From: an uncultured archaeon
GTDB taxonomy: Archaea > Asgardarchaeota > Jordiarchaeia > Jordiarchaeales > Jordiarchaeaceae
Reading direction: 5' to 3'
Length of the DNA stretch: 32,000 nucleotides
NCBI GenBank assembly: GCA_964510585.1
Contig: CAZECW010000114.1
Span: 5,746 to 37,745, forward strand
The position numbers and the translations under genes are program-made. This document shows, in pieces, positions 12,596-25,076 of the stretch. Numbering within the stretch: position 1 is the stretch's first letter; each line of letters begins with the position of its first letter. Below the pieces are notes generated by a model, which did not search any database, was not told where the DNA came from, and saw nothing but the letters and a program-made list of their open reading frames with translations.

Positions 12596-14449
12596 TTATG
12601 CGCCCCACAGATCTTTTGCTACGTCGGGCAAACCGATAATTATTAAGCGATCCTTGGTAGGAATCGCGTCCTCGGTCCATCCGCGGAATGCATAGTAGTC
12701 CTTCATCATCACATCCATTGGAGGAACCCTACCCTTCTGGCCACCCTCTTTGGTAGGCGTCAGAAGTCTCGGGGGAAGCCTATTGTCCTTAGCAGACATA
12801 CCGGCACGGACACAGTAAGCCCATTTAAGGTTAAACAGGCGGTCGGCGGTAATATTCAGTGTCAGCTCATCAATATTCCAACCACAACAATTTCTGAAGG
12901 CCTCCAAGAAGGTCGGCGTACTCATTGCGGTTCCGCCAAACATGCAAATGACTCCCGCTGCCAGTACCGCGAAAACGTCTTGCATGACTGCAGTGAGTGT
13001 ACCCTTTCCGGTGGGGTCAAATCTTCCGGTTCTTTTGGTTATACCTGCGGGTGGTTGTAGTAGTCCCATATCTGCTATGGAGGGATAACCCGTTACGTGG
13101 CATGCACCTCGGGGTGCGGTGGCATACTCTACTCCCATGCTGTAGAATGCTCGGGGGTCATGCATTGGGGCTTCGAGTCCTTTGACTGTTGTTAGAAATT
13201 CGTGTCCTTTACCCAGCTTGTCGGCTGCTGCTTGTGAGCCGTCTGCCAATAGTTGTCCCGCTTTTCCTTCTCTTCTAACGATTTTTTCTGTGAGTCTTAC
13301 TACTGCGTCAGCGTTTCCCCATGCTAGTTCTATTCCGTCTATGTCGTTCTTTTTTATTATTCCCTTTTCGTAGGCTTCTATGGCCCAGGCTACTGTGGCT
13401 CCCGTGGATATAGTGTCCACTCCATAGTCGTTGCAGAGATAGTTAACCCAAGATATTGCTTCAAGATTATCTACAAGTAGTAATGAGCCGAATGTTCCGC
13501 ATGTCTCGTATTCTGGTCCCGGTCCCTCGTATTTGTAGGGTCCTTTTTTGATTTCCACCCATCTACCGCACCTTATGGGGCAGTTGTAGCAGGCAGTTTG
13601 TTTTTTGAGTATAGTTTTGTACATAGCTCCGCCGCCGATTCTGTCCGTCCCATCCCATTCTCCTAGTTGCCAGTTTTTGATGGGTATGTCTCCGAGGGGC
13701 TTCATAGAATCCATGAAGTATTCGGTTCCATATTTTCCCAGTCCTAGTGCGACCATTGGGTTGATTTCTATCCAGTGGGTGTACTTTTTAATTTGTTCTT
13801 TTACTGCGTCGGGGTTTGCCCACTTTATGTCTCCTGTTCCTTTAATGGCTATGGCTTTGAAATTTTTGCTTCCCATCACTGCTCCAGCTCCTCCTCTCCC
13901 TAAGGCACGGGCTTCATCGTTTATTATGCAGGCTAGTTTAGATTTCTTCTCGCCAGCAGGTCCTATACACAGAACTCTGGCTTTTTTCTCGCCGATTTCT
14001 TCTCTTATCATTTCTTGGGTCTTAAATGTGCCTTGTCCCCATATTTTTGAAGCGTCTCTCAGCTCGTATTTGTTGTCTTTTACTGAGAGGTATACTGGTT
14101 TCTCTGATTTTCCTTCGATGACTATTCCATCGTATCCCGCTCTCTTCATTTCAAAGGCGAAGTATCCGCCAGAGTTTGCTTCTCCATACCCGTGGGATAT
14201 GGGAGATTTGAATACTACGGTGAATCTTGAGCTACAGGGCAAGCCTCCCGATAGGGGTCCGGTGAAGAAGTAGAGTTTGTTTTTTTCGTCGAACTCATCT
14301 ATTTTTGGAGGAACCTCATCGTAGAGTAGACGCGCCCCAAATCCGCTGCCCCCAATCCATGTTTTAGCCCATTGCTCATCTATAGGTACCTCTTTTATTT
14401 TTCCCTCTGTTAGGTTCACTCTTAAGTATTTACCCATCCATCCAAACAT
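12596..14449 (-). CDS. aor: Tungsten-type aldehyde:ferredoxin oxidoreductase (AOR family)
   Basis: GWMGKYLRVNL, GRGGAGAVMGSKN, CYNCPIRC, GPEYET, NDYGVDTIS. ATG 14449 follows GAGGTGA. Confidence 0.93.
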   Translation of the reverse strand: MFGWMGKYLRVNLTEGKIKEVPIDEQWAKTWIGGSGFGARLLYDEVPPKIDEFDEKNKLYFFTGPLSGGLPCSSRFTVVFKSPISHGYGEANSGGYFAFEMKRAGYDGIVIEGKSEKPVYLSVKDNKYELRDASKIWGQGTFKTQEMIREEIGEKKARVLCIGPAGEKKSKLACIINDEARALGRGGAGAVMGSKNFKAIAIKGTGDIKWANPDAVKEQIKKYTHWIEINPMVALGLGKYGTEYFMDSMKPLGDIPIKNWQLGEWDGTDRIGGGAMYKTILKKQTACYNCPIRCGRWVEIKKGPYKYEGPGPEYETCGTFGSLLLVDNLEAISWVNYLCNDYGVDTISTGATVAWAIEAYEKGIIKKNDIDGIELAWGNADAVVRLTEKIVRREGKAGQLLADGSQAAADKLGKGHEFLTTVKGLEAPMHDPRAFYSMGVEYATAPRGACHVTGYPSIADMGLLQPPAGITKRTGRFDPTGKGTLTAVMQDVFAVLAAGVICMFGGTAMSTPTFLEAFRNCCGWNIDELTLNITADRLFNLKWAYCVRAGMSAKDNRLPPRLLTPTKEGGQKGRVPPMDVMMKDYYAFRGWTEDAIPTKDRLIIIGLPDVAKDLWGA

Positions 14450-14454
14450 TTCGC

Positions 14455-15780
14455 TCACCTCACTTTTTGTAAGTCTGGGTGTTCGACTCGTTTGAATCCC
14501 TCTTTGGGAACGGGGTGTATCTTCTTATAGAATTTCCTCAGAGTGGAGCCTGCGGTCTGCTGGTACAGGAAGGTTGATAACGCTGACTCCATGGGTTCAA
14601 CAGTTTTCAGCACGTAATCCTTACTGCCTAAACCTATCTCCTGCCCCACATTACACTGTATGTCTTCACTTACACCCATGAAGGAACCTGCAGCACTAAA
14701 CTTTGGCAAACCCGGAGCTGCTACGAATTTTTGTTCAGCAGCTGACCCCGGCATTCCCACTGATTTTATAGCCATATCTAAGCAGGCTCTATCTATAGCC
14801 ACAGGATCTTTGCCAGCAAAGATTCCCATGTTTGGAATAATGGGGCGGTCGGAGTATGGGATGCAGTCGCACCAAGGAGTGCTATCTATCGCAAAGTTTA
14901 TGAATCCCACTTTCCCAGGCTCGAAAGTTTTCATACAGGCGAGTGCCGAATCAGCTATCGCAACGGAGCTCGCTTCAAGGGTGTCTAGTACTTCCAAGGT
15001 TGCGAAAACACCACAATCCAAAGTCATAAATAAGTGAGCTAAACAACCCTTGCAAAGTTCCCGATTAAATTGAATTGGCCCATCTTCAGGAACAGAAAGT
15101 GCACCTTCAGGGCAGCAGGAGATGCATGTCTCCCACTTTGCGCATTTCCTACCATCACAGTATTGTGGGAAGTAACTTAACGCCTGCAAACCTAGTACGG
15201 GGTGAACTCCTAAGTGTAGATTGTATTTCCCTCTCTTAGATGCACACCCTACACCAATGTTTTTAATAGATCCTCCAAATACTCCCATCGGGTGCCCTTT
15301 AAAGTGGGTTAGTACTATCATGGCGTCTGCACATGCTATTGCAGTTGCGATATATTGTTCTTTGAGTATGTATCCCTCTGGTAGGTCTACTCGGACATCG
15401 TCTGTTCCTAGGAAGCCGTCTCCTATTATCACTGGGCATCCTACTGTTCCTGAGTTGAAACCGTTTCTCTCTATGGTCATGTACTCGTCCCATGCGTTTG
15501 TTCGGAACACGTAGGGAGCGTAGGGTAGAGTGGTTGTATCAACAACGAAGGGCCTTCCTCCCAGTTCTTTCACTTTATCTGCAATTGCCCTCACATAGAC
15601 TGGTCGGAGGTAGGCGGTGTTGTTCCATTCACCCATATGTACTTTTATTGCTACATAATCGCCTTTATCTATGCACTCGTTTAGCTTGGCCTGATCGAAT
15701 AGGTGGAGTGCCTTCGCTACTAGACTGGTTGCTGTGCTTTCACTCCTGTCATCCATATAAAAAACTTCAGATTTTGCCAT
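14455..15780 (-). CDS. DUF362 family Fe-S protein with a ferredoxin-like insert
   Basis: IKVHMGE...YLRP, THFKGH, GGSIKNIGVGC, PWCDC, DPVAIDRAC, plus a Cys cluster CDGRKC...CISCCP...CKGC. Stop lies 5 nt from the AOR start. Confidence 0.85.
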   Translation of the reverse strand: MAKSEVFYMDDRSESTATSLVAKALHLFDQAKLNECIDKGDYVAIKVHMGEWNNTAYLRPVYVRAIADKVKELGGRPFVVDTTTLPYAPYVFRTNAWDEYMTIERNGFNSGTVGCPVIIGDGFLGTDDVRVDLPEGYILKEQYIATAIACADAMIVLTHFKGHPMGVFGGSIKNIGVGCASKRGKYNLHLGVHPVLGLQALSYFPQYCDGRKCAKWETCISCCPEGALSVPEDGPIQFNRELCKGCLAHLFMTLDCGVFATLEVLDTLEASSVAIADSALACMKTFEPGKVGFINFAIDSTPWCDCIPYSDRPIIPNMGIFAGKDPVAIDRACLDMAIKSVGMPGSAAEQKFVAAPGLPKFSAAGSFMGVSEDIQCNVGQEIGLGSKDYVLKTVEPMESALSTFLYQQTAGSTLRKFYKKIHPVPKEGFKRVEHPDLQKVR

Positions 15781-16139
15781 CTTTCTCCTCCTATCTAATA
15801 TTTTTGAATAATTATTTTTGGGTGTATGTTCTTAAAATTATTTTCGCTTCATTTCAAAATTTTAAGAATTTTTCAACATTTGCCGTATCTATGCTGGAAC
15901 AAAATAGTAATTATGAATATAATTTTGTTCTTATCATTATATTATATTTTTCTATATTAAAGGCAAAAGCAAGCTGGTTGCCCATAGTTTGAGAGTTTTT
16001 AGTGGGAACATATGCGAAGAAGCATTTTAGGTTCAATGAAATATTTTCGGTTCTTTTCATCCCTTTTTTGACAAGATTTATATTCTATGGTGTTGGATTC
16101 TTAATTTTTAAGGAGTATTGTTGGTTTGGAGTTGGTTTG

Positions 16140-16544
16140 ATGGTTAAGTTTCCTAGCGACGATTGGGCAAAAGCTTATATGAAGGCTTTAAACGAAAATA
16201 GGGCTTATGAGGATGCTGCTTTGGACTGGGAAGGTGACTTTCTCTTTGTTATAGATCCTGATGACAAGTTAAAGCAGAGGACAGCCATATACCTTGATCT
16301 TCATCATGGGAAGTGTAGGGAAGCTTATGTTTTGAAGCCCGGTGAGGAGAAAAAGACAAGCTTTGTCATTGAGGCTCCCTACGGTGTTTGGGTTAGAGTG
16401 ATTAAGAAGGAACTGGATGCAATTCGGGGATTGATGACTGGTAAGTTAAAGTTGAAGGGAGATATGGCTAAGGTAATGCGGTACACTAAGGCAGCGCAGG
16501 AGATGGTTAACACCACAACTGCGATTCAGAGTGAGTTTCTCTAA
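16140..16544 (+). CDS. SCP2 (sterol carrier protein 2) lipid-binding domain protein
   Basis: MVKFPSDDWAKAY...LDLHHGKC...GLMTGKLKLKGDMAKVMR. The N-terminal 46 codons in the ORF track look non-coding, so ATG 16140 is taken as the start. Confidence 0.85.
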   Translation: MVKFPSDDWAKAYMKALNENRAYEDAALDWEGDFLFVIDPDDKLKQRTAIYLDLHHGKCREAYVLKPGEEKKTSFVIEAPYGVWVRVIKKELDAIRGLMTGKLKLKGDMAKVMRYTKAAQEMVNTTTAIQSEFL

Positions 16545-16572
16545 ATCTTTTTTTATTATTTTTGGGCGGGTG

Positions 16573-17742
16573 ATGGCTTTGTGGTTTTTTATCGGACCCA
16601 AAGTGGTTTTTGGAGAAGACGCTTTGGATTATTTGGAGCAGATTCAGGGCAGTAAGGCGCTTATAGTTACGGATAGAGTTATAGCGGATTTGGGGATTGT
16701 TGACAGGGTTAGGGAAAAGTTGAAGACTGCAGGTATAGAGTGTGAGGTTTTTGATGAGGTGGAGCCGGATCCTTCAGATACTACGGTGTTTAAAATTTTA
16801 GATAGGCTGAAGGATTACGAGCCGGATTGGATAGTGGGCTTGGGTGGCGGCTCCAGCATGGACGCTGCCAAAACTGCTTGGGTATTGTGGGAGAATCCGG
16901 AAAAGAGATTAGAAGACATTAACGCCTTTACTCCAGTGAGCGTTAATCAGAAGGCGCGGCTCATTACTATTACGACTACTAGTGGTACGGGTTCTGAGGT
17001 TACTTGGGCTACGGTGGTTACTGATACAAGGGAGCATAGGAAGATGATATTGATGGCGAAGGAGATTGTTCCCTTTGCGGCGATTGTTGATCCCAAACTT
17101 ACACTTAGTATGCCTCCCAGATTGACTGCGGTTACTGGTCTGGATGCTCTGACCCATGTGGTGGAGAGTTACATTAATTCTTGGAAGAACGATTTTTCCG
17201 ATGCCTTTGCTATGAAGGCTATCCAGTTTATTTTTGAGTATCTTCCCAGGGCTTACAAGAATGGTGAAGATATGGAGGCCCGCACCAAGATGGCGAACGC
17301 AGCAACTATGGCTGGCTTATCCTTTGGAAATGCTTCTGTGGGCATCGCACATGGGGTGGCTCACTCTGTAGGAGCGGTGTTTGGTTTACCTCACGGCTTA
17401 GTTTGCGGCGTTGCTCTACCCTATGTTATTGAGTATAATATTCCCACCTCTGCAAAGTACTTGGCTGAACTAGCGGAACTTATTGGGATTAGGGAGAGGG
17501 ATGAGAGGAGGGCGGCGAAGGCTCTGGCTGAAAGGACAAGGAAACTTTTGAGGGAGATTGAAATTCCCCTGTGTTTGAAGGATTTGGGTATCGGGGAGAA
17601 GGAGTTTAGAGAAAATTTTGAACGCTTGGTCAGGCTGACAATTCAGGACGCTTCAAGCACACTGAATCCCAGAACATTTACCAGAGAGGATATAGAGAAA
17701 ATCTATGAATGTATTTATTATGGTAGAGAGGTTGATTTCTAA
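16573..17742 (+). CDS. Iron-containing alcohol dehydrogenase
   Basis: GLGGGSSMDAAK, TTSGTGSEVT, DALTHVVE, GIAHGVAH, HGLVC. ATG 16573 follows GGGTGA. Confidence 0.93.
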   Translation: MALWFFIGPKVVFGEDALDYLEQIQGSKALIVTDRVIADLGIVDRVREKLKTAGIECEVFDEVEPDPSDTTVFKILDRLKDYEPDWIVGLGGGSSMDAAKTAWVLWENPEKRLEDINAFTPVSVNQKARLITITTTSGTGSEVTWATVVTDTREHRKMILMAKEIVPFAAIVDPKLTLSMPPRLTAVTGLDALTHVVESYINSWKNDFSDAFAMKAIQFIFEYLPRAYKNGEDMEARTKMANAATMAGLSFGNASVGIAHGVAHSVGAVFGLPHGLVCGVALPYVIEYNIPTSAKYLAELAELIGIRERDERRAAKALAERTRKLLREIEIPLCLKDLGIGEKEFRENFERLVRLTIQDASSTLNPRTFTREDIEKIYECIYYGREVDF

Positions 17743-17747
17743 AGAGG

Positions 17748-18635
17748 TTATATGCAGCGGTATAGTTGAATGAGGGGAGTTACATCGTTTATGGCGGCTT
17801 CGAGGCTTATGGAAGCGTATTGGTCTATATGATATTTTCCCCCTTCTTCTTTTAGTATGCGGTGTTTGACCAGTATTTCTAGGGTTTCTATTAGGCGTTC
17901 CTGGGGATTAAAGTTTTTAATTTGGTTCACGGTTTGGTTCTGCAAAATTTGGAGCGTGGTCACTTCTAGTTTTTTCTGGCGTATTTCTCTTAGTGCGGAT
18001 ACAATGTTTTTGGGGGGCGGTATTCCCACTTTCCAGATGAGTGTTTCTCTCCCCAGTCCTTGGAGGTTTATTATTTTGTTGTCGTGGAGCTGTTTTATGA
18101 TTAGTTTGGGGTTGTTAGAAAAGTTTTGTGTGATTTTTATAATTTCTTCCTTATTTACAAGTGGGGGGGAGTGAAGTATGGCGTCGAATAGTTTTCTGGT
18201 TTCTCTCCAGTCTTGGTGTGTTCCCTCAAGGGGGAGGGGACTGTACTTTAGCACGGAGAGTCTTCCGTCTTTCTCCAGGATGGGGGATAGTTCCTTTTCG
18301 ACTTTTTGGATGAGTGTTTTGAGGCAACCGTTACCGTTTGGTGTTAGTCCAGTTATTTCCGTTACCAGTTCGGGTAGTTCTGCAGGTATGCTGAGCAGTC
18401 TTGTGGCTCGAGCGATGATTGATTCTATTCCCCGGGAGTAGAAAACATCTATGAGTTTCCTTATCTGCTGGGTGGGCAGGATGGGCTTTTTCTCACAGAA
18501 TTTTTTTATGCACTGGTCAATGAATTTTCTTCGGAGTTCCTGCCCTACCTCCAGTGATGGGAAAAGTGTGGTGAATGATACCGCATCCCTATTCGCTCGG
18601 ATAAAGCCCATCGAATCCGAGTGTTTGTTGTTCAA
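17748..18635 (-). CDS. Hypothetical protein (295 aa), third gene of the herA-nurA operon, possible C-terminal winged-helix repeats
   Basis: TTG start 1 nt after the nurA stop, with GGGGGG upstream. Segments PKLIIKQLHDNKII and LIETLEILVKHRILKEEGGKYHI resemble wHTH recognition helix plus wing. Confidence 0.75.
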   Translation of the reverse strand: MNNKHSDSMGFIRANRDAVSFTTLFPSLEVGQELRRKFIDQCIKKFCEKKPILPTQQIRKLIDVFYSRGIESIIARATRLLSIPAELPELVTEITGLTPNGNGCLKTLIQKVEKELSPILEKDGRLSVLKYSPLPLEGTHQDWRETRKLFDAILHSPPLVNKEEIIKITQNFSNNPKLIIKQLHDNKIINLQGLGRETLIWKVGIPPPKNIVSALREIRQKKLEVTTLQILQNQTVNQIKNFNPQERLIETLEILVKHRILKEEGGKYHIDQYASISLEAAINDVTPLIQLYRCI

Positions 18636-18636
18636 A

Positions 18637-19851
18637 TCAAACCCCCCTAGGCTTGCTTACCTTCCAAATCACCTCTAATCCATGTTTTGGTTTAAAAAGG
18701 CGATAAAACTTTTTGGGAGAAATTTTATTCTGCCGGGCTATTTTGACAATCTTGGCTAACAACTCGTCCGCAAGAAAGTTGGGTAAATCTGTCTCTATGA
18801 GACTGAACGCATGGGCAAACTCAAGCGACCAAGGTACATTGTTCAGGTTGCTTGCCTGGTAATAAATTGCGGAACACACATATTCGAGTTGCTTTTCGCT
18901 TTCCGCTATATCCTTGTGTAACTCTACTCTGATGGGGAGAGCTTCTGGGTGGGGCTTTATGTAGAAGAACTTTTGTTGGGAAAGAAATTTGGAGTAACGT
19001 TCGCCGAATATTTTCCTATTCGCCAGAGTTGTCCACAGATCACTTGTTTGGGGAACTGTGATGTTTAGCTCATCCCGATTACCCGGTCGGAGAAGGGAGT
19101 CCAAAAGGTTGGCATCATTTATTCGGCCATAAACTCCACTTAACCAGTAGGAAACGTTCTTGTATTTTGAAATTAGATCCATAGAGTGGGGGGACTTTAT
19201 CACAAAAGCATGGAGTGTCTCTAAGAGCTTTTCAGACAGTATATCTGCCGTGCCCTGGCTTCCATAGATTTTTTCGAAAATAATTTTGTACTCCTGCTGC
19301 ACCTCTCGACTCTGGTTACTGAAAATTTCTGATTCCCCCAGACTATAGGGCAGAAGATCATAGTGAGGAACAAAGGGGCCGTCCAGCAAAACGAGATCGC
19401 AACTGTTTCCCTCAAGTGCACGTAGACTAACAAGGCGCTCAAGATACTGTCGGGACACTGCTTGAATCCGCTCCACGTCCTCGTCTACCAGGCCCATAAC
19501 AGGTATACACTTTCCAACAATGTAGGGATTATGTGCCACGGGATTGTTACATTTGAAGGTTATTCCCGCCGCTGAAACTACAATGAGATCCAAACCCGCC
19601 CTTTGGCTTCTATTGGAGGAGCCGTCAACTGCAACTGTAACAGCATCTCGGGCTGCAGGATTGGTGTTAAGTGTTAGGGTTTCAAGCTGCTTACTCTCAC
19701 TTAGATTCTCAACTGATTCTATGAGATCCAGATACACGTCGTAGAACCGATATACTTCAGATTCGAGTATGTCCAGTGTCTGGTGGAAGATTTCTCCACC
19801 ACAATTTCCGCCGCTTTTCTCCTCTTCCAAGAATTTTAAAAGGTTGTTCAC
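18637..19851 (-). CDS. nurA: NurA-family 5'-3' nuclease
   Basis: AVDGS, LERL, LLDGP, FFYIK...PIRVE, PWSLEFAH: all canonical NurA motifs with the acidic/His catalytic residues kept. GTGA overlap with the herA stop. Confidence 0.88.
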   Translation of the reverse strand: MNNLLKFLEEEKSGGNCGGEIFHQTLDILESEVYRFYDVYLDLIESVENLSESKQLETLTLNTNPAARDAVTVAVDGSSNRSQRAGLDLIVVSAAGITFKCNNPVAHNPYIVGKCIPVMGLVDEDVERIQAVSRQYLERLVSLRALEGNSCDLVLLDGPFVPHYDLLPYSLGESEIFSNQSREVQQEYKIIFEKIYGSQGTADILSEKLLETLHAFVIKSPHSMDLISKYKNVSYWLSGVYGRINDANLLDSLLRPGNRDELNITVPQTSDLWTTLANRKIFGERYSKFLSQQKFFYIKPHPEALPIRVELHKDIAESEKQLEYVCSAIYYQASNLNNVPWSLEFAHAFSLIETDLPNFLADELLAKIVKIARQNKISPKKFYRLFKPKHGLEVIWKVSKPRGV

Positions 19852-21449
19852 ACTCTATTCCTCTCCGCGAAGTCCCTATGGAGATCAAAGACTGTGTTTC
19901 CGCCGTAGCCCAGCTGTATGTCTCCCTTTTCAATGGTTACACAGAGAGGGTCCTTCAGCGGAGTGGCCATACCAGCTATCAGGAACTCTCCCACCCCCAA
20001 ACGAGGAAGAATCTTTTGAATCTCTGGAAAATCAGTGTAGTCTTCTATGGCTCTCATATCATTTGCTGCTGTTAAACACCCACAGAAGAGAGTGCTGAGG
20101 TTTGAGAAGACTGTTTTTGAGATTCGGGAGATTCTTTGATTAATGATGGTTAGGTTTGCCCCGAACTTGCGGCCCTCCTCAGAGAGGCTTGTTATTTTTC
20201 CTGAGGAAAGGTAGGGTTTTCCAACGGTTATCTGACCGTAGGAACCACCCATTTCAGGAATATAGTTTTTCGCCTCATCAATTATTAGGTGAATCGGGTA
20301 TCTGTTTCGAAGAATCAAATCAGCAATAGTTCCAATCTTAGCCTGTCTGGCATCCAATGTGTCACAAGAAGCGTCAATAACCAGTATGTTACCAGCAGCC
20401 CTCTTCCAAATTGTGTTGTACTGATCCACGCTGCCCCCTGCAAAAATATCTTTGCCCAGCAATTTAACCCGACGCCGTATGGCTGCACTCCAGCTGCTTA
20501 TAGAACCATCCTTTTTATAGAATTCGTCTAGCCACTCATTCACATAGGACATAAAACATTCACTATTAAGCTCCGCAGCACCACATGTGAAATCCATCAC
20601 GAAAATATCCGCCGCCACCTCTACAGCCTTCTTAGCCTGAGAGGGAAGCACATCTAATCCCAGAGTTTTAACAATATCGTTAGCATCTGTAGGAACCACC
20701 GGTAATTCTAAACTAGACATAACCTGGAAATTGCTACACAACTTGTCCAGATTGCTGGTAGCATATTCACCAGTATGATCCCAAACTATAACATTAACTT
20801 TCTTTTTTAGAGAGGATAACCCCACAATATTAGCCGCAGTGGTGACGCTCTTGCCCATACCTATACGGGCGAATATTCCCACCCCCAAACGCAGTATAGC
20901 TGAGGCGTCTAGATCCACTGGGTAATCGGTTTCGCGAATCTTACCCACAGGATAGTATTCTCCCTCCCTAGCGGGGTCTCGGAATAGGGCTTCGTAATCT
21001 TCCTTGTTGGATATGAATATGGGGGAACAGGGTTTGGGAGGGTGAGATAACCTGCGCACTCCGGGATGGGCAGGAATTCCATATATGCGAAGCTCGCCGA
21101 ACTTCATATTTTGATCTAGTCTGGGAACCTCACCGTAAAGGCTGGAGAAGTAGTTCAAAACGTCGGTGGTTGCCCCCCTTGTGGCAGCGAAAAGGTTTGA
21201 AACCAGCCCAATAGCTTTAGTTTTTTGGTGGCTGACGGTGAGGAGTTGGCCCTCATAAACATAATCCGTGGCGTAGTCGAAGACTGCGAAATCGCACTTT
21301 TTAGTGCTGGTTGGACTTGTTACGAAACCTACGGGAGAGGCGCCCTTCAAGATTTGTTCTTTTGAACGCAAATACTCATATTCTTCGACTTCGGAGCTCA
21401 TAACGGCTCGCAGCACGGATGTTTCGAGGCCTGTTTCCTCAACCGTCAT
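19848..21449 (-). CDS. herA: HerA-family ATPase/helicase (HAS barrel plus FtsK/HerA ATPase)
   Basis: Walker A FARIGMGKS, VWDHTGEY, Walker B LIIDEAK, arginine finger EGRKFG, and QR motif. N-terminal beta-rich HAS-like region ending in PPKPCSPI. Confidence 0.9.
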   Translation of the reverse strand: MTVEETGLETSVLRAVMSSEVEEYEYLRSKEQILKGASPVGFVTSPTSTKKCDFAVFDYATDYVYEGQLLTVSHQKTKAIGLVSNLFAATRGATTDVLNYFSSLYGEVPRLDQNMKFGELRIYGIPAHPGVRRLSHPPKPCSPIFISNKEDYEALFRDPAREGEYYPVGKIRETDYPVDLDASAILRLGVGIFARIGMGKSVTTAANIVGLSSLKKKVNVIVWDHTGEYATSNLDKLCSNFQVMSSLELPVVPTDANDIVKTLGLDVLPSQAKKAVEVAADIFVMDFTCGAAELNSECFMSYVNEWLDEFYKKDGSISSWSAAIRRRVKLLGKDIFAGGSVDQYNTIWKRAAGNILVIDASCDTLDARQAKIGTIADLILRNRYPIHLIIDEAKNYIPEMGGSYGQITVGKPYLSSGKITSLSEEGRKFGANLTIINQRISRISKTVFSNLSTLFCGCLTAANDMRAIEDYTDFPEIQKILPRLGVGEFLIAGMATPLKDPLCVTIEKGDIQLGYGGNTVFDLHRDFAERNRV

Positions 21450-21476
21450 ACAAATTACCCCGTAGGGCTTTAGCTT

Positions 21477-21515
21477 GGTTCATTTTATAGGTGAACCACT
21501 ATTTAAATTTAGTGG
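21477..21515. promoter_or_regulatory. Two overlapping inverted repeats around TATA-like cores upstream of herA
   Basis: GGTTCA-N9-TGAACC (21477-21497) and CCACTA-tttaaatt-TAGTGG (21496-21515). The minus strand reads TTTAAATA and TATAAAAT within them, 30-60 nt upstream of the herA ATG. Confidence 0.45.
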
Positions 21516-21551
21516 AAAACACAAAAAATTTTTGAATTAATGGAAGGATAA

Positions 21552-21592
21552 CCTATCATAATATATAAATAAAATGCGTTTTTTGTGATAGG
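21552..21592. repeat. 41-bp element copy 1: CCTATCA-N27-TGATAGG
   Basis: Perfect 7-bp inverted arms around an AT-rich spacer containing TATATAAATA. 31/41 identical to copy 2 by hand count. Confidence 0.75.
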
Positions 21593-21737
21593 ACTTCTTA
21601 TTTACTGAAAAAACTTTCTTGAAATTGTGAAAGTGGCAGGAGCAAAAAGAAGTAAGGTATGATACTTTGGGGAAAATTTGGATACTTTTTGAACAATTTT
21701 TACTGGTCTGGGGGCGAATCTGGAGGGCAAGCTTGTT

Positions 21738-21778
21738 CCTATCATTATTTATAAATAATTTCGGATAGTTGTGATAGT
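21738..21778. repeat. 41-bp element copy 2: CCTATCA-N27-TGATAGT
   Basis: Same arms and the same 27-nt spacing as copy 1. Contains the perfect palindrome ATTATTTATAAATAAT (21744-21759). Confidence 0.75.
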
Positions 21779-21966
21779 AGCTATGTTGTGCTTATTGTAC
21801 TTTTAAAGGGATATTTCTGAAAAAGACCATAAAATATATATACAGGATATATGATATTTCATACAAAAACCACCACTTCCACTCGTTTAGAAATAAATAA
21901 AATAATATTGACAGGTTTATTCGTCTTACCTACGGGAAAATCGGTGATTATTTCGAGGCGTCCTAG

Positions 21967-22263
21967 ATGATAGATGAATTACTAGGTTTGGGTAGATCAA
22001 AGACACGTTTGGATATTGTAAACCTCATGTTGGATGAGGGTAGACCCTTATCAGCTTCAGAGATAGCGGAAAAGCTGGGTATCAGCCTTAACGCTGCAAA
22101 TATTGCTATCCACTATTTGAATAAGGCGCGTCTTTTGAATAAGGTTGAACGTGGCATGTATGAGGTCAATGTTTATGCCTTCTGTAAGGCGTTTCTAACT
22201 TTTCTTTTAGGTTCTAAGGTTAGCGGTTATGCTGGTAAGAGTCTTGAAGAATACACAAAGTGA
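21967..22263 (+). CDS. Small winged helix-turn-helix protein 1 (98 aa)
   Basis: PLSASEIAEKLGISLNAANIAIHYLNKARLLNKVERGMYEVN. Confidence 0.85.
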   Translation: MIDELLGLGRSKTRLDIVNLMLDEGRPLSASEIAEKLGISLNAANIAIHYLNKARLLNKVERGMYEVNVYAFCKAFLTFLLGSKVSGYAGKSLEEYTK

Positions 22264-22283
22264 GTGGGAGGTGAAAAGCCAGG

Positions 22284-22562
22284 TTGAGTGGTCTATTAGA
22301 CGATACGGTGCTGCGGCTCCGAGGTGGCAGTCTAAAGGTTCTATCGCTTCTATCCATTTCGCACCGTCCCTTAAGGCCGGTTGAGATAGCGGATATTCTG
22401 GGCATGCAGCTCAACGATGTGGGAAAGTATCTTGTTAGGTTGGCTAGTAAAGGGCTGGTTTCGAAGGTTAACTTGAATGGCAATTCCACTGGTTACACTT
22501 CAAACCTAGATATTCTGGAACTTGTGCTGGACCATGAGCGTAGATTAAGGAATTTGGAGTAG
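22284..22562 (+). CDS. Small winged helix-turn-helix protein 2 (92 aa)
   Basis: PLRPVEIADILGMQLNDVGKYLVRLASKGLV. TTG start with GGAGGTGA RBS at 22267-22274. Confidence 0.85.
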   Translation: MSGLLDDTVLRLRGGSLKVLSLLSISHRPLRPVEIADILGMQLNDVGKYLVRLASKGLVSKVNLNGNSTGYTSNLDILELVLDHERRLRNLE

Positions 22563-22589
22563 GGCCTGTTTAGGAATGGGGGCTGCTTT

Positions 22590-22889
22590 TTGAGTTCCGA
22601 GGATAGCGATAATCTTTTTGACAAGTTCGACAAGCTTATGAGGATGAGGGATAATGCAAACAAGGTGCTCATCTACATTCTAACTAGCCCTAAGCCAGTG
22701 ACTCCTAAGGAGCTTATGGATAACTTGGGTTTGACTGAGAATAGTGTTTGGAAGACTGTTAGGCGATTGGAGGCAGATGGTTTTCTTAGATTGGTTGGTA
22801 GGGGGGAGTATGAGCCTAACTTGGGTTTGTTAACTGCGCTTCTTCTGTTTAAAGTGCAGGAGTTAATTAAAATGTTAGAAAAGAGATGA
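22590..22889 (+). CDS. Small winged helix-turn-helix protein 3 (99 aa)
   Basis: SPKPVTPKELMDNLGLTENSVWKTVRRLEADGFLRLVGRGEYEPNLG. Confidence 0.87.
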   Translation: MSSEDSDNLFDKFDKLMRMRDNANKVLIYILTSPKPVTPKELMDNLGLTENSVWKTVRRLEADGFLRLVGRGEYEPNLGLLTALLLFKVQELIKMLEKR

Positions 22890-22893
22890 TTGG

Positions 22894-23205
22894 ATGAGTG
22901 ATGATGAAGAGCAGATTAGTTCCAAGGAGGCGTTTAATAAATTATTGAGGCTGGGCGAGTCCTCCATTCAGATAATTGAGTACATACTTTGCTCACCTAA
23001 ACCCGTGACTCCTAAAGAACTGGTGGAAAAGTTGGGAATTACGGAAGGCACGGCTTGGAATGCGTTAAGCAGATTGCAGAAGATTGGTTTCCTTGTTACC
23101 AAAAGTAGGGGGGAGTACGAGGCAAATATAGGATTTATTTTAGCCATGGTTCTTTTCACACTAAGCGATATGGCTGAAAAATTGAGAGAAGTAAAGAGGA
23201 GGTGA
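22894..23205 (+). CDS. Small winged helix-turn-helix protein 4 (103 aa), close paralog of protein 3
   Basis: SPKPVTPKELVEKLGITEGTAWNALSRLQKIGFLVTKSRGEYEANIG. 38 of 87 aligned positions identical to protein 3 (hand count). Confidence 0.87.
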   Translation: MSDDEEQISSKEAFNKLLRLGESSIQIIEYILCSPKPVTPKELVEKLGITEGTAWNALSRLQKIGFLVTKSRGEYEANIGFILAMVLFTLSDMAEKLREVKRR

Positions 23206-23556
23206 ATACAAGGAGGAGTAACCGGAGAATGGAAAAGTTTGCAGGCTATTAAAATTTTCCGGGGAAGACATTTTCCACATCGAAACCATATTTTCCAGAA
23301 TTGAGAGATAGACTTGGCGGCTCCTACAAAACATGGAAAGATTTGGGTTCGTTGGTCTTGTGGTTTAAATATGAGCCCAATCAAATAATCAGGTGTAGGA
23401 AGGATGTGTCCCAAATATAAGATTCTTGGTGGCTAAAGCTCTGGAAATTGTTCTAAACGCTGACAAAGGGGATAAATGGTAAGAAGGAGGAACCAAAATG
23501 AATTAATTAAAATTTATGATTTAAAATTTAATTCAATGTGTTTGGAGGTTTAACAA

Positions 23557-23883
23557 ATGGAAGATGAAGATGTGTTTGAGGAAGGAGAGGCATTTGGGGG
23601 AGATTATAAGACTCTAATAAAGAAGTTAATTGATCCTAGAGCCAGAACTATGTATTCCATCTTGGAACTTCTGCTTCAAAATGTGAAGAGTGAACCGGTT
23701 TCTGCCAGTAATATAAAGGATAAGCTGGGGATTTCTAAGCAGGCGGCTACCAATGCTGCGCGTAGGCTTGAGGAAACAGGATTCATAACCCGCACGCCTG
23801 AGGGATATATGGTAAATCAGGGATTCATAATAAATTTGTTAATCCAACTTGTTGGGGAAATCTTGAAAAAACTGGAGCTCTAA
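23557..23883 (+). CDS. Small winged helix-turn-helix protein 5 (108 aa)
   Basis: PVSASNIKDKLGISKQAATNAARRLEETGFITRTPEGYMVNQG. GGAGGT RBS upstream and an acidic N-terminus. Confidence 0.87.
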   Translation: MEDEDVFEEGEAFGGDYKTLIKKLIDPRARTMYSILELLLQNVKSEPVSASNIKDKLGISKQAATNAARRLEETGFITRTPEGYMVNQGFIINLLIQLVGEILKKLEL

Positions 23884-23966
23884 ATCGAAAATTGGTAACT
23901 CAAAGAGCGTCCGCGAAGAAAAAGTAGAATAATCTGGAAGGTACTTGACAGAATCTTTGGAACTTT

Positions 23967-25076
23967 TTATATGGATATTTTCTCCAAGCCCTCAACTATG
24001 CTCTGGGTTCCCTTGCTTATTGCTACTTTTTCTAGGTCTGAACGTGTTACTATTTTACCCGTTTTTGCCGATAGGTAACATAGAAGAGCTACCTCTACAG
24101 CTTTTTTTGCCTCTTCGGGGGAGAAGGCTGGCTCCCTGTCGTTGAGTATGCATTCGGCGAAATGGGCATCCTCATTTCTAAATGAGATAATGTAATACAT
24201 TGGAAAAGGTTCATGCTCCACATCAGGGCTGAACCACTGGTATCTGTGTTCGCCAGCTTCTTTGCTAGTCGAGAATATCTGCACCGGTTTTTTCCAGGAG
24301 TGATCCTCTAGAATAGTTCCCTCTGTTCCGTAAAATTCCAGTCTGTTGTTTGGAGGGCTAAACACTGTGTCGCTTACAACAACACTACCAACGCATCCGT
24401 TTTCAAATTTTAGAAGCATCATAGCGTTGTCCTCAGCCTTATTCTGCAGTTTTATAATCTGCTTAGCTAGCCAGCAGTAAGCTGAATGCACGTCTCCTAA
24501 CATCCAATTCAGTATGGCGAATTTGTGCACTGCAGCGTCCATTAACACGCCGCCGCCTGCTTTTTTTGGTGAGCCCTTCCAGTGTTCAGGCTTTGCAAGA
24601 TCCGGGGTTTCATCCACACCCTCATAACCCCTTACGAGTATGGGGGTTCCTATCAGCCCAGTTTCCAGTGTTTTTTTGATGAGTTGATGTGCGGGTAGGA
24701 AGCGGTGGTTTTCTGCTATCATAAGTTTCACTCCAGCCTTTCTTGCCGCCTTTATCATTTTGTCGCACTCTTCAAGAGTTGGGGCCATAGGTTTCTCACA
24801 GAGAATGTGTTTACCAGCCTCTGCCGCTGCGACGGTTAGCTCGGCGTGTAGGTGGTGGGGGAGGGCTATGAGAACTGCATCAATATCATCATTTTTCATA
24901 ATGTCTTGATAATTCCTGGTTACTGTTAGATTGTAAATATCGGCCAATTTCTTAGCGTTTTCATAGTTCACATCAAAGGCAGATACTAGCTTAATCTTGT
25001 CCACATATTTACATGCCGAAGCGTGAAAATGAGCCGCTGTCCCGCATCCCAAAACACCAATTTTAACTTGTCTCAT
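23967..25076 (-). CDS. Gfo/Idh/MocA family NAD(P)-dependent oxidoreductase
   Basis: GVLGCG, PHHLH, GKHILCEKP, GGGVLMDAAVH. Confidence 0.93.
   Translation of the reverse strand: MRQVKIGVLGCGTAAHFHASACKYVDKIKLVSAFDVNYENAKKLADIYNLTVTRNYQDIMKNDDIDAVLIALPHHLHAELTVAAAEAGKHILCEKPMAPTLEECDKMIKAARKAGVKLMIAENHRFLPAHQLIKKTLETGLIGTPILVRGYEGVDETPDLAKPEHWKGSPKKAGGGVLMDAAVHKFAILNWMLGDVHSAYCWLAKQIIKLQNKAEDNAMMLLKFENGCVGSVVVSDTVFSPPNNRLEFYGTEGTILEDHSWKKPVQIFSTSKEAGEHRYQWFSPDVEHEPFPMYYIISFRNEDAHFAECILNDREPAFSPEEAKKAVEVALLCYLSAKTGKIVTRSDLEKVAISKGTQSIVEGLEKISI

Follow-up and report, generated by a model that had tools for sequence, protein, structure and literature searches.

A conserved array of paralogous winged-helix proteins facing an accessory HerA-NurA pair in Asgard archaea of the order Jordarchaeales

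Introduction

The ArsR/SmtB repressors have a winged helix-turn-helix (wHTH) and are proteins of about 100 amino acids, which dimerise via their terminal helices and bind inverted repeats overlapping promoters. Their genes usually occur singly, beside a resistance operon. The MarR regulators are longer (about 140-150 amino acids) and possess, beyond the wHTH, a helical dimerisation domain made from the N- and C-terminal helices. Here, we report the analysis of five tandem genes (W1 to W5) encoding small wHTH proteins in a 32,000-nucleotide stretch of DNA, hereafter the window, of an uncultured Asgard archaeon of the Jordarchaeia/'Freyarchaeota' (GenBank assembly GCA_964510585.1, contig CAZECW010000114.1, positions 5,746 to 37,745 of the forward strand). 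These genes stand back to back with those of a HerA-like ATPase, a NurA-like nuclease and an orphan protein, X. We tentatively propose that the W proteins are co-expressed, sequence-specific and probably dimeric DNA binders, which are dedicated to an accessory HerA-NurA-X module and act on paired promoter elements.

To our knowledge, HerA and NurA constitute the least understood part of archaeal DNA-end processing. According to a 2026 review, no Asgard NurA has been characterised; it counts four NurA genes in Freyarchaeum and offers no explanation for them (PMC13748450).

Archaeal proteins of similar architecture are the Lrs14 proteins, which follow the order H0-H1-S0-H2-H3-S1-S2-H4, dimerise via H0 and H4 (PMC11841832) and bind DNA cooperatively. 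Their genes occur in Sulfolobales only, scattered over the genome, and the proteins are reported to bind DNA with little sequence specificity (PMC11841832).

Results and Discussion

W1 to W5 are paralogous single-domain wHTH proteins

The five open reading frames (ORFs) lie on the + strand, at the coordinates and, from W1 to W4, with the intergenic gaps (20, 27 and 4 nt) reported in a first-pass annotation of the window; the gap between W4 and W5 is 351 nt:

21967..22263, + strand: W1, ORF of 98 amino acids with an ATG start, which opens the array; Pfam HTH_24, HTH_5 and HTH_20
22284..22562, + strand: W2, ORF of 92 amino acids with a TTG start; Pfam HTH_IclR (25 bits)
22590..22889, + strand: W3, ORF of 99 amino acids with a TTG start, sister of W4; Pfam HTH_11 and HTH_24
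22894..23205, + strand: W4, ORF of 103 amino acids with an ATG start; Pfam HTH_11 (34.5 bits)
23557..23883, + strand: W5, ORF of 108 amino acids with an ATG start, which closes the array; Pfam MarR (34.6 bits) and MarR_2 (32.5 bits)

The common layout that this annotation had described was recovered in the alignment of the five proteins. P27, L37, G38, L51, Y65 and N68 (W1 numbering) are invariant, and they define a P-x9-LG motif, a leucine in the recognition helix and a Y-x-x-N motif preceding a hydrophobic C-terminal helix. W2 is peculiar in having a longer wing and a shortened C-terminal helix, and the acidic N-terminal tails attributed to W3, W4 and W5 are directly readable in their sequences. 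The identity between W3 and W4, estimated by hand at about 44%, was measured at 41.8% over 98 amino acids (BLAST E 3e-29), and the remaining pairs are indeed less similar (30-38% identity, E 1e-5 to 3e-11), W2 and W5 lacking a direct BLAST match to each other. A profile made from the five members was run against the 3.78-Mb genome. As it returned W1-W5 at E 8e-42 to 2e-25 and the next match at E 2e-5, their resemblance is not due to chance. The five proteins are mutual best matches in the genome, far closer to one another than to any other protein encoded there. No Pfam domain other than such generic models (HTH_24, HTH_11, HTH_IclR, MarR) was found in W1-W5, in agreement with the earlier statement that they lack a ligand-binding domain. 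Together, these data support the view that W1-W5 are paralogs of one family, each consisting of a single wHTH domain followed by a C-terminal helix, and none having a ligand domain.

The array and the HerA-NurA-X genes are inherited as one block

The genes facing the array are as follows:

19848..21449, - strand: HerA-like ATPase of 533 amino acids, divergent from the array; Pfam DUF87/HerA central domain (49 bits)
18637..19851, - strand: NurA-like nuclease of 404 amino acids, whose start overlaps the herA stop by 4 nt; Pfam NurA (52 bits)
17748..18635, - strand: X, orphan protein of 295 amino acids, third gene of the herA-nurA operon

The comparison set comprised five other genomes of the same genus and five genomes of a second Jordarchaeales family. 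The W genes were found back to back with X-NurA-HerA in 10 of these 10 genomes, and back to back with HerA-NurA in one further Asgard metagenome-assembled genome (MAG). Between three and six array genes were found per relative (n = 5 for the same genus and n = 5 for the second family), contig ends accounting for the smaller numbers. Wherever the sequence suffices, X-NurA-HerA occupies one strand, and W1, W2, W3, W4 and the following genes occupy the other in a fixed order. As the association with HerA-NurA-X is strict across lineages while the genes beyond either end of the block are not the same in the two Jordarchaeales families, the link to the adjacent nuclease-helicase, which had been suggested from the window, is now firmer.

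The orthologs correspond one-to-one by position, and phylogenetic trees recovered every ortholog group. For W1, the identity to the orthologs amounts to 80% within the genus, to 52-57% in the second family and to 45% in the MAG (WJIK01000119), and the clade has a support of 97/92. W2 is the best-conserved member of the array (76-80% identity across the two families, 58 of its 92 positions being invariant in six genomes); its clade (support 99/98) takes in homologs from two other Asgard lineages. The identity to the orthologs of the other family is 48-52% for W3 and 60-62% for W4, and it reaches 70-73% for HerA. Within the genus, the pairwise dN/dS ratios of W1-W5 range from 0.03 to 0.16, although synonymous sites are near saturation; these ratios identify W1-W5 as real genes under selection.

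In the relatives, the array genes abut or overlap one another, including by 4 nt, which indicates co-translation. Together with the gaps of 4 to 27 nt between W1 and W4 in the window, these overlapping, coupled starts agree with the operon-like spacing noted earlier, and they support the proposal that the W genes are organised as an operon and would be expressed together.

The MAG WJIK01000119, which is labelled Heimdallarchaeota, encodes a HerA 61% identical to that of the window. Opposite its HerA-NurA genes stand six genes for small wHTH proteins, arranged as new gene-W1-W2-W3/4-W6-W5, with one W3/4-like gene at the position of W3 and W4, and X does not adjoin NurA. This six-gene array facing HerA-NurA indicates that the array and its link to HerA-NurA predate the Jordarchaeales, the W3/W4 duplication and X thus appearing to be later additions. 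In the same MAG, the array is followed by a gene encoding 205 amino acids (L044, 3081-3698), for which no Pfam match is on record.

The paralogs differ in their recognition helices

The columns of the W-family alignment were scored for conservation within six ortholog groups and for difference between the groups. Eleven positions are fixed inside the ortholog groups and yet differ among at least four of them. Six of the eleven (52, 53, 55, 56, 58 and 59) fall in the N-terminal half of the recognition helix, within its first two turns (Fisher's exact p = 2e-5), and others are located before and within H2 and at the tip of the wing. All groups have in common the hydrophobic core, the G-x-Y-x-x-N turn and the beginning of H4. 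The divergence of the recognition helices, already remarked upon in the first-pass annotation, therefore sits exactly at the DNA-facing positions, and each version has been kept across the order. Since the paralogs differ where a wHTH reads DNA, and since each version has been constant since before the family split, these data support the proposal that the W paralogs have distinct, conserved DNA targets. They also argue against fast-evolving, anti-invader specificity cassettes, because the recognition helices are held constant. The idea of a diversified specificity array is not supported, the paralogs being old and frozen by purifying selection.

The herA-W1 spacer contains a conserved paired element

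The spacer between herA and W1 (517 bp) holds two copies of an operator-like element:

21552..21592, no strand assigned: operator-like element, copy 1, 41 bp, with the inverted-repeat ends CCTATCA and TGATAGG and a TATA-like core
21738..21778, no strand assigned: operator-like element, copy 2, direct repeat of copy 1 located 186 bp downstream, 78% identical

The element is kept in G004, G005, G006, G010 and, less strictly, in G009, and both copies occur in the spacers of five genomes representing the two families. When ten copies from five genomes were aligned, the conserved columns corresponded to the arms CCTAT.A and TGATAG and to the core TATAAAT. A whole-genome search allowing one mismatch per arm yielded no further copy with a TATA-like core outside the spacer. 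As judged from this pattern, the 41-bp element has the footprint expected of a protein-binding site placed over promoters, and it appears to belong to the array-HerA locus.

A second palindrome (21496-21515), CCACTA-TTTAAATT-TAGTGG, lies about 50-65 nt upstream of the start of herA and surrounds a core resembling a TATA box. G004 has the identical palindrome and G005 has retained part of it; it may be the actual promoter and operator of herA. Between the two 41-bp elements (21593-21737), blocks such as GACTGTCTTA and GTGGCAGGA are conserved across both families, with no conserved ORF in this interval. Rfam gave no match in 21400-24000. The stretch between the elements might serve as a leader or yield a small RNA produced from the first element.

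Concerning expression, the public sequencing runs were available as assembled contigs only, and two of them are probably DNA. In one RNA-library run, short contig pieces (95-99% identity) span W1 and the junction of W2 with W3, and further ones correspond to portions of the X, NurA and HerA genes.

The W proteins compared with known wHTH families

The AlphaFold model of W4, computed from a 36-sequence family alignment (pLDDT 90), shows H0 (residues 10-18), H1 (22-33), a short strand, H2 (40-47), H3 (51-64), a two-stranded wing (67-77) and H4 (79-102), the latter comprising 24 residues. Its best full-length structural matches are of the ArsR type (6j05_A, Z 12.0 over 91 amino acids; 2oqg_C, Z 11.5 with an rmsd of 1.9 over 93 of 103 amino acids). 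They are followed by Lrs14-like structures aligned over 90-92 amino acids (2d1h, Z 10.0; 6cmv, Z 9.8). From this model, the W proteins are best described as a new small family of predicted ArsR/Lrs14-like architecture.

With the ArsR/SmtB proteins (PDB 6j05 and 2oqg), the likeness extends over the whole chain, and the fold alpha1-alpha2-alpha3-alphaR-beta-beta-alpha5 is present. The W genes differ from the arsR genes in forming a fixed set of five or six paralogs, and in having the genes of a nuclease and an ATPase as neighbours. At the sequence level, W1 just passes the 22-bit cut-off of the Pfam HTH_5 model with 23.3 bits and W2 scores 12.4 bits, the other W proteins not being listed; W1 (22.9 bits) and W5 (17.9 bits) both stay below the 55-bit cut-off of the NCBIfam ArsR/SmtB model NF033788. 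Reading the sequences of W1-W5 revealed no conserved Cys/His motif for metal or metalloid sensing: both residues are missing from W3 and W5, whereas W1 contains one of each, W4 a single Cys and W2 two His. Regarding MarR, W5 passes the cut-offs of both the Pfam MarR (24.6 bits) and MarR_2 (27 bits) models, W1, W3 and W4 fall below them and W2 scores 14 bits. The W proteins (92-108 amino acids) nevertheless have neither the size nor the dimerisation domain of MarR proteins, since a single helix follows the wing, and MarR structures match them partly.

The comparison with Lrs14 drawn in the first-pass annotation holds for the architecture and not for sequence membership. The topology of W4 is identical to that of the Lrs14 family (Lrs14, AbfR1/AbfR2 with 6cmv, Sto12a/ST1889 with 2d1h, and Sta1), including H0 and the long H4. 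Both groups consist of small archaeal proteins (about 100 amino acids) that lack a ligand domain and are present as several paralogs in a genome. In contrast to Lrs14, the W proteins are from Asgard archaea, encoded in tandem at one locus, near-neutral in charge and endowed with paralog-specific, conserved recognition helices. None of them reaches the 90-bit cut-off of the Lrs14 model NCBIfam NF040939 (W4, 27.4 bits; W5, 18.6; W3, 16.5; no match for W1 and W2). As for the H0-Tyr/H4-Asp anchor of the Lrs14 dimer, the W alignment contains no conserved Tyr in H0, nor does residues 10-18 of W4 contain any; an acidic residue is common in H4. For the hetero-oligomerisation through the C-terminal helix conjectured in the first-pass annotation, a prediction of the W1+W2+W3+W4 complex with ortholog alignments gave a score of 0.02, which counts neither for nor against binding.

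HerA-NurA-X is one of several HerA-NurA pairs

The genome contains four NurA-HerA pairs, the NurA of the window being one of four, in line with the number counted in Freyarchaeum (PMC13748450). On contig C118, HerA is followed by a metallophosphoesterase (Mre11-like) and an SMC/AAA_23 protein (Rad50-like), which makes the HerA-NurA pair of the window an additional one. No Mre11 or Rad50 was found in the window, and matches to the Rad50 zinc hook occur on contigs C5 and C191. As in the canonical herA-mre11-rad50-nurA operon, the genes of a HerA-family ATPase and of a NurA nuclease are neighbours in the window, the stop of one overlapping the start of the other. The window differs from this operon in that the pair lacks Mre11 and Rad50, is accompanied by the orphan X and faces a wHTH array. 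The HerA of the window scores far under the cut-offs of the NCBIfam HerA equivalogs. More distant HerA homologs from beyond Asgard archaea (22-25% identity) have unrelated contexts and no wHTH arrays, and for a Korarchaeota homolog (39% identical) the contig ends inside herA.

Each of the 11 Jordarchaeales genomes has one copy of X, whereas a search of 290 other Asgard genomes did not find it in any. It had no match in Pfam, NCBIfam, PADLOC or PDB sequence searches. Comparison with the W family using hhalign aligned residues 208-273 with 17% probability, which weakly hints at a C-terminal winged helix. The structure model of X obtained from a 5-row alignment has a pLDDT of 39, and the Atlas model (pLDDT 0.49) has weak tandem-wHTH look-alikes (TM 0.31-0.37). 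About 70 residues of X are invariant across the order, including R-A-x-R-D-A near the N-terminus, P-A-E-L-P and H-x-D-W.

On contig C137, the HerA gene is followed by genes for a metallo-beta-lactamase-fold protein, a RIO-type kinase and a DUF460 protein, and contig C195 carries a NurA (644 amino acids) and a HerA (623 amino acids) side by side, both unusually long. Upstream of the block, the window (12596-17742) contains genes for a tungsten-type aldehyde:ferredoxin oxidoreductase, a DUF362 protein, an SCP2-domain protein and an iron-containing alcohol dehydrogenase. The aldehyde:ferredoxin oxidoreductase and DUF362 genes adjoin the block in G005 as well.

The 3' end of the array is variable

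The long gap between W4 and W5 is occupied by a further feature:

23206..23500, + strand: W6 remnant, decayed sixth paralog with stops and frameshifts

The intact W6 of G002 matches 23399-23497 (tblastn, 54.5% identity over 33 amino acids, E 2e-7), and the N-terminal motif of W6 is readable near 23230-23300 in another frame, with stops and frameshifts between the two parts. An intact W6 exists at the same place in G005, in G002, in the second family and in WJIK01000119. In related strains, a 119-nt stretch of the W4-W5 gap is exchanged for 126 other letters. Furthermore, the trees showed that the fifth gene of the second family is orthologous to W6, not to W5. This pattern of presence and decay indicates that the array gains and loses members at its 3' end, whereas W1-W4 form a stable core. 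W5 itself probably has its own promoter.

The W family outside the arrays

Among 1.84 billion representative proteins, the W-family profile retrieved 85 at E <=1e-10, the majority of which are long multi-wHTH repeat proteins and about 25-30 of which are small, single-domain proteins. Many of the long ones (400-2300 amino acids; for example P0003, P0009 and P0012) comprise 5-11 tandem wHTH repeats with high scores to the profile, and they look like a covalently linked counterpart of a multi-wHTH set. Within Asgard archaea, arrays occur only in the two Jordarchaeales families among the 301 genomes sampled. One other Asgard family has a single full-length homolog in 72 of its 76 genomes, this homolog being W5-like with a recognition helix almost identical to that of W5, and one genome carries a pair of W2-like and W5-like genes. 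The conserved block around these singletons (L035, 6347-9440; L036, L039 and L040) includes a convergent gene for a pyridoxal phosphate (PLP)-dependent decarboxylase, a TraB/PrgY-family gene, a gene for a CobW/HypB-type GTPase and one for a TrmB-type regulator.

Proposed role of the W proteins and alternative explanations

Our proposal that the W proteins serve HerA-NurA-X through the shared spacer starts from what is established for the locus, namely the paralogy, the fold (modelled for W4), the operon packing, the strict synteny, the purifying selection, the divergence of the recognition helices, and the conservation and uniqueness of the element. By analogy with the solved Lrs14 relatives, which have an H0/H4 dimer interface (PMC11841832), we propose that one or more W proteins, as dimers, would bind the paired, palindromic, TATA-enclosing elements of the spacer, and would thereby regulate both herA-nurA-X and the W operon itself. 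The paralogs would stem from ancient duplications that preceded the separation of the two Jordarchaeales families and, in part, that of the further Asgard lineage, each paralog then retaining its own recognition helix. The set would serve HerA-NurA(-X) as an accessory nuclease/translocase module without a link to Mre11-Rad50, and the differing recognition helices would give this module several distinct, conserved DNA inputs or targets.

Several points weigh against this proposal. DNA binding by the W proteins is itself an inference, as are the identity of the protein that binds the element, the composition of the dimers and the direction of the regulation. The centres of the arms of the element are about 34 bp apart, so that one compact wHTH dimer cannot span them; bent DNA, two dimers or a higher oligomer would be needed. 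Five or six regulators are also many for one divergent promoter pair. Since the W5-like singletons adjoin the PLP-dependent decarboxylase gene and not HerA-NurA, the W family as such is not bound to HerA-NurA. In the window, 351 nt part W5 from W4, and W5 may be regulated on its own. Finally, the support that the RNA-library contigs lend to expression is weak, DNA carry-over being possible, and it does not extend to transcript ends, strand or operon structure.

Alternatively, the W proteins could be structural or targeting subunits: a hetero-oligomeric multi-wHTH assembly would recognise particular sites or structures in DNA and load or direct HerA-NurA-X there, promoter regulation being secondary. 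We regard this as possible, though unlikely. It would fit the co-inheritance with HerA-NurA in three lineages, with the order and number of the genes fixed, and translational coupling is typical of complex subunits. In addition, other DNA-recognition partners are plausible for a HerA-NurA pair devoid of Mre11-Rad50, and X may carry a winged helix too. The array is however divergent from herA-nurA-X instead of lying inside their operon, neither HerA nor NurA was seen fused to a W domain, and W5-like singletons occur without HerA-NurA. A more specific form of the idea, which we find slightly more doubtful, is that the five to six paralogs form a defined hetero-oligomeric complex with different reading heads, which would load a dedicated HerA-NurA-X translocase/nuclease onto conserved chromosomal sites or DNA structures, or aim it at them. 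If true, this complex would constitute an undescribed Asgard DNA-processing system. The same singletons, which stand alone in an unrelated context in another Asgard family, would also fit ordinary, independent transcription factors that have their own regulons elsewhere, the tandem arrangement and the vicinity of HerA-NurA being a historical accident kept by linkage. The generic regulator HTH models matched by all the W proteins, and the different targets implied by their recognition helices, point in this direction as well. We nevertheless consider such independence rather improbable, because the order, number and divergent orientation of the genes are kept over two families and a third lineage while the flanks are not, because X and the array share one distribution, and because genes that overlap or lie 4 nt apart are expressed together.

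Two further explanations appear much less probable. The architecture shared with Lrs14, Sso10a and Sul12a, in which a long C-terminal helix accompanies the wHTH, the presence of several paralogs in one genome and the weak score of W4 on the NCBIfam Lrs14 model (27 bits) are reminiscent of nucleoid-associated, chromatin-like proteins that coat or bridge DNA with little sequence specificity. Such a role, raised in the first-pass annotation, is very unlikely for the W proteins. Their net charge of about -3 to +2 and isoelectric point (pI) of 5.0-9.3 are not strongly basic and are atypical of abundant chromatin proteins, their Lrs14 score is far under the 90-bit cut-off, their paralog-specific conserved DNA-facing residues argue for sequence-specific binding, and the family is tied to one dedicated locus with its own conserved palindromic element. 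We see even less reason to view the block as a mobile or defence cassette in which the wHTH proteins sense or repress a HerA-NurA effector degrading foreign DNA. It is true that HerA-family ATPases participate in several anti-phage systems, that the HerA of the window matches PADLOC HerA and mad8 with modest scores, and that the surroundings of the block change from one family to the other. The block is however single-copy and vertically inherited across the order, NurA, X and the W proteins match no PADLOC defence model beyond generic wHTH, and the recognition helices are under strong purifying, not diversifying, selection. An origin from a mobile element was rejected, as there is no integrase or other mobile-element gene beside the block, its upstream neighbours are the same within the genus and it is single-copy throughout the order.

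Significance

Searching PADLOC and NCBIfam gave no system-level match for the block, and full-text searches of the literature (HerA/NurA with winged helix and Asgard; Jordarchaeia/Freyarchaeia) returned no description of the arrangement. The W proteins belong to a known superfamily and their neighbours are enzymes of familiar types; the novelty lies in the combination of a fixed multi-paralog set, an accessory HerA-NurA pair and a cis element of its own.

Asgard organisms are among the closest known relatives of eukaryotes. In one of them, we find that one of four NurA-HerA pairs is a distinct module with an orphan partner, a conserved promoter element and five to six dedicated winged-helix proteins. 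As the proteins are small and soluble-looking, and the 41-bp element is defined, the locus offers a concrete handle on the role of an accessory HerA-NurA and on its control or targeting. It also provides a clean natural example of paralogous, presumed DNA binders whose specificities parted at the recognition helix and were kept unchanged thereafter.

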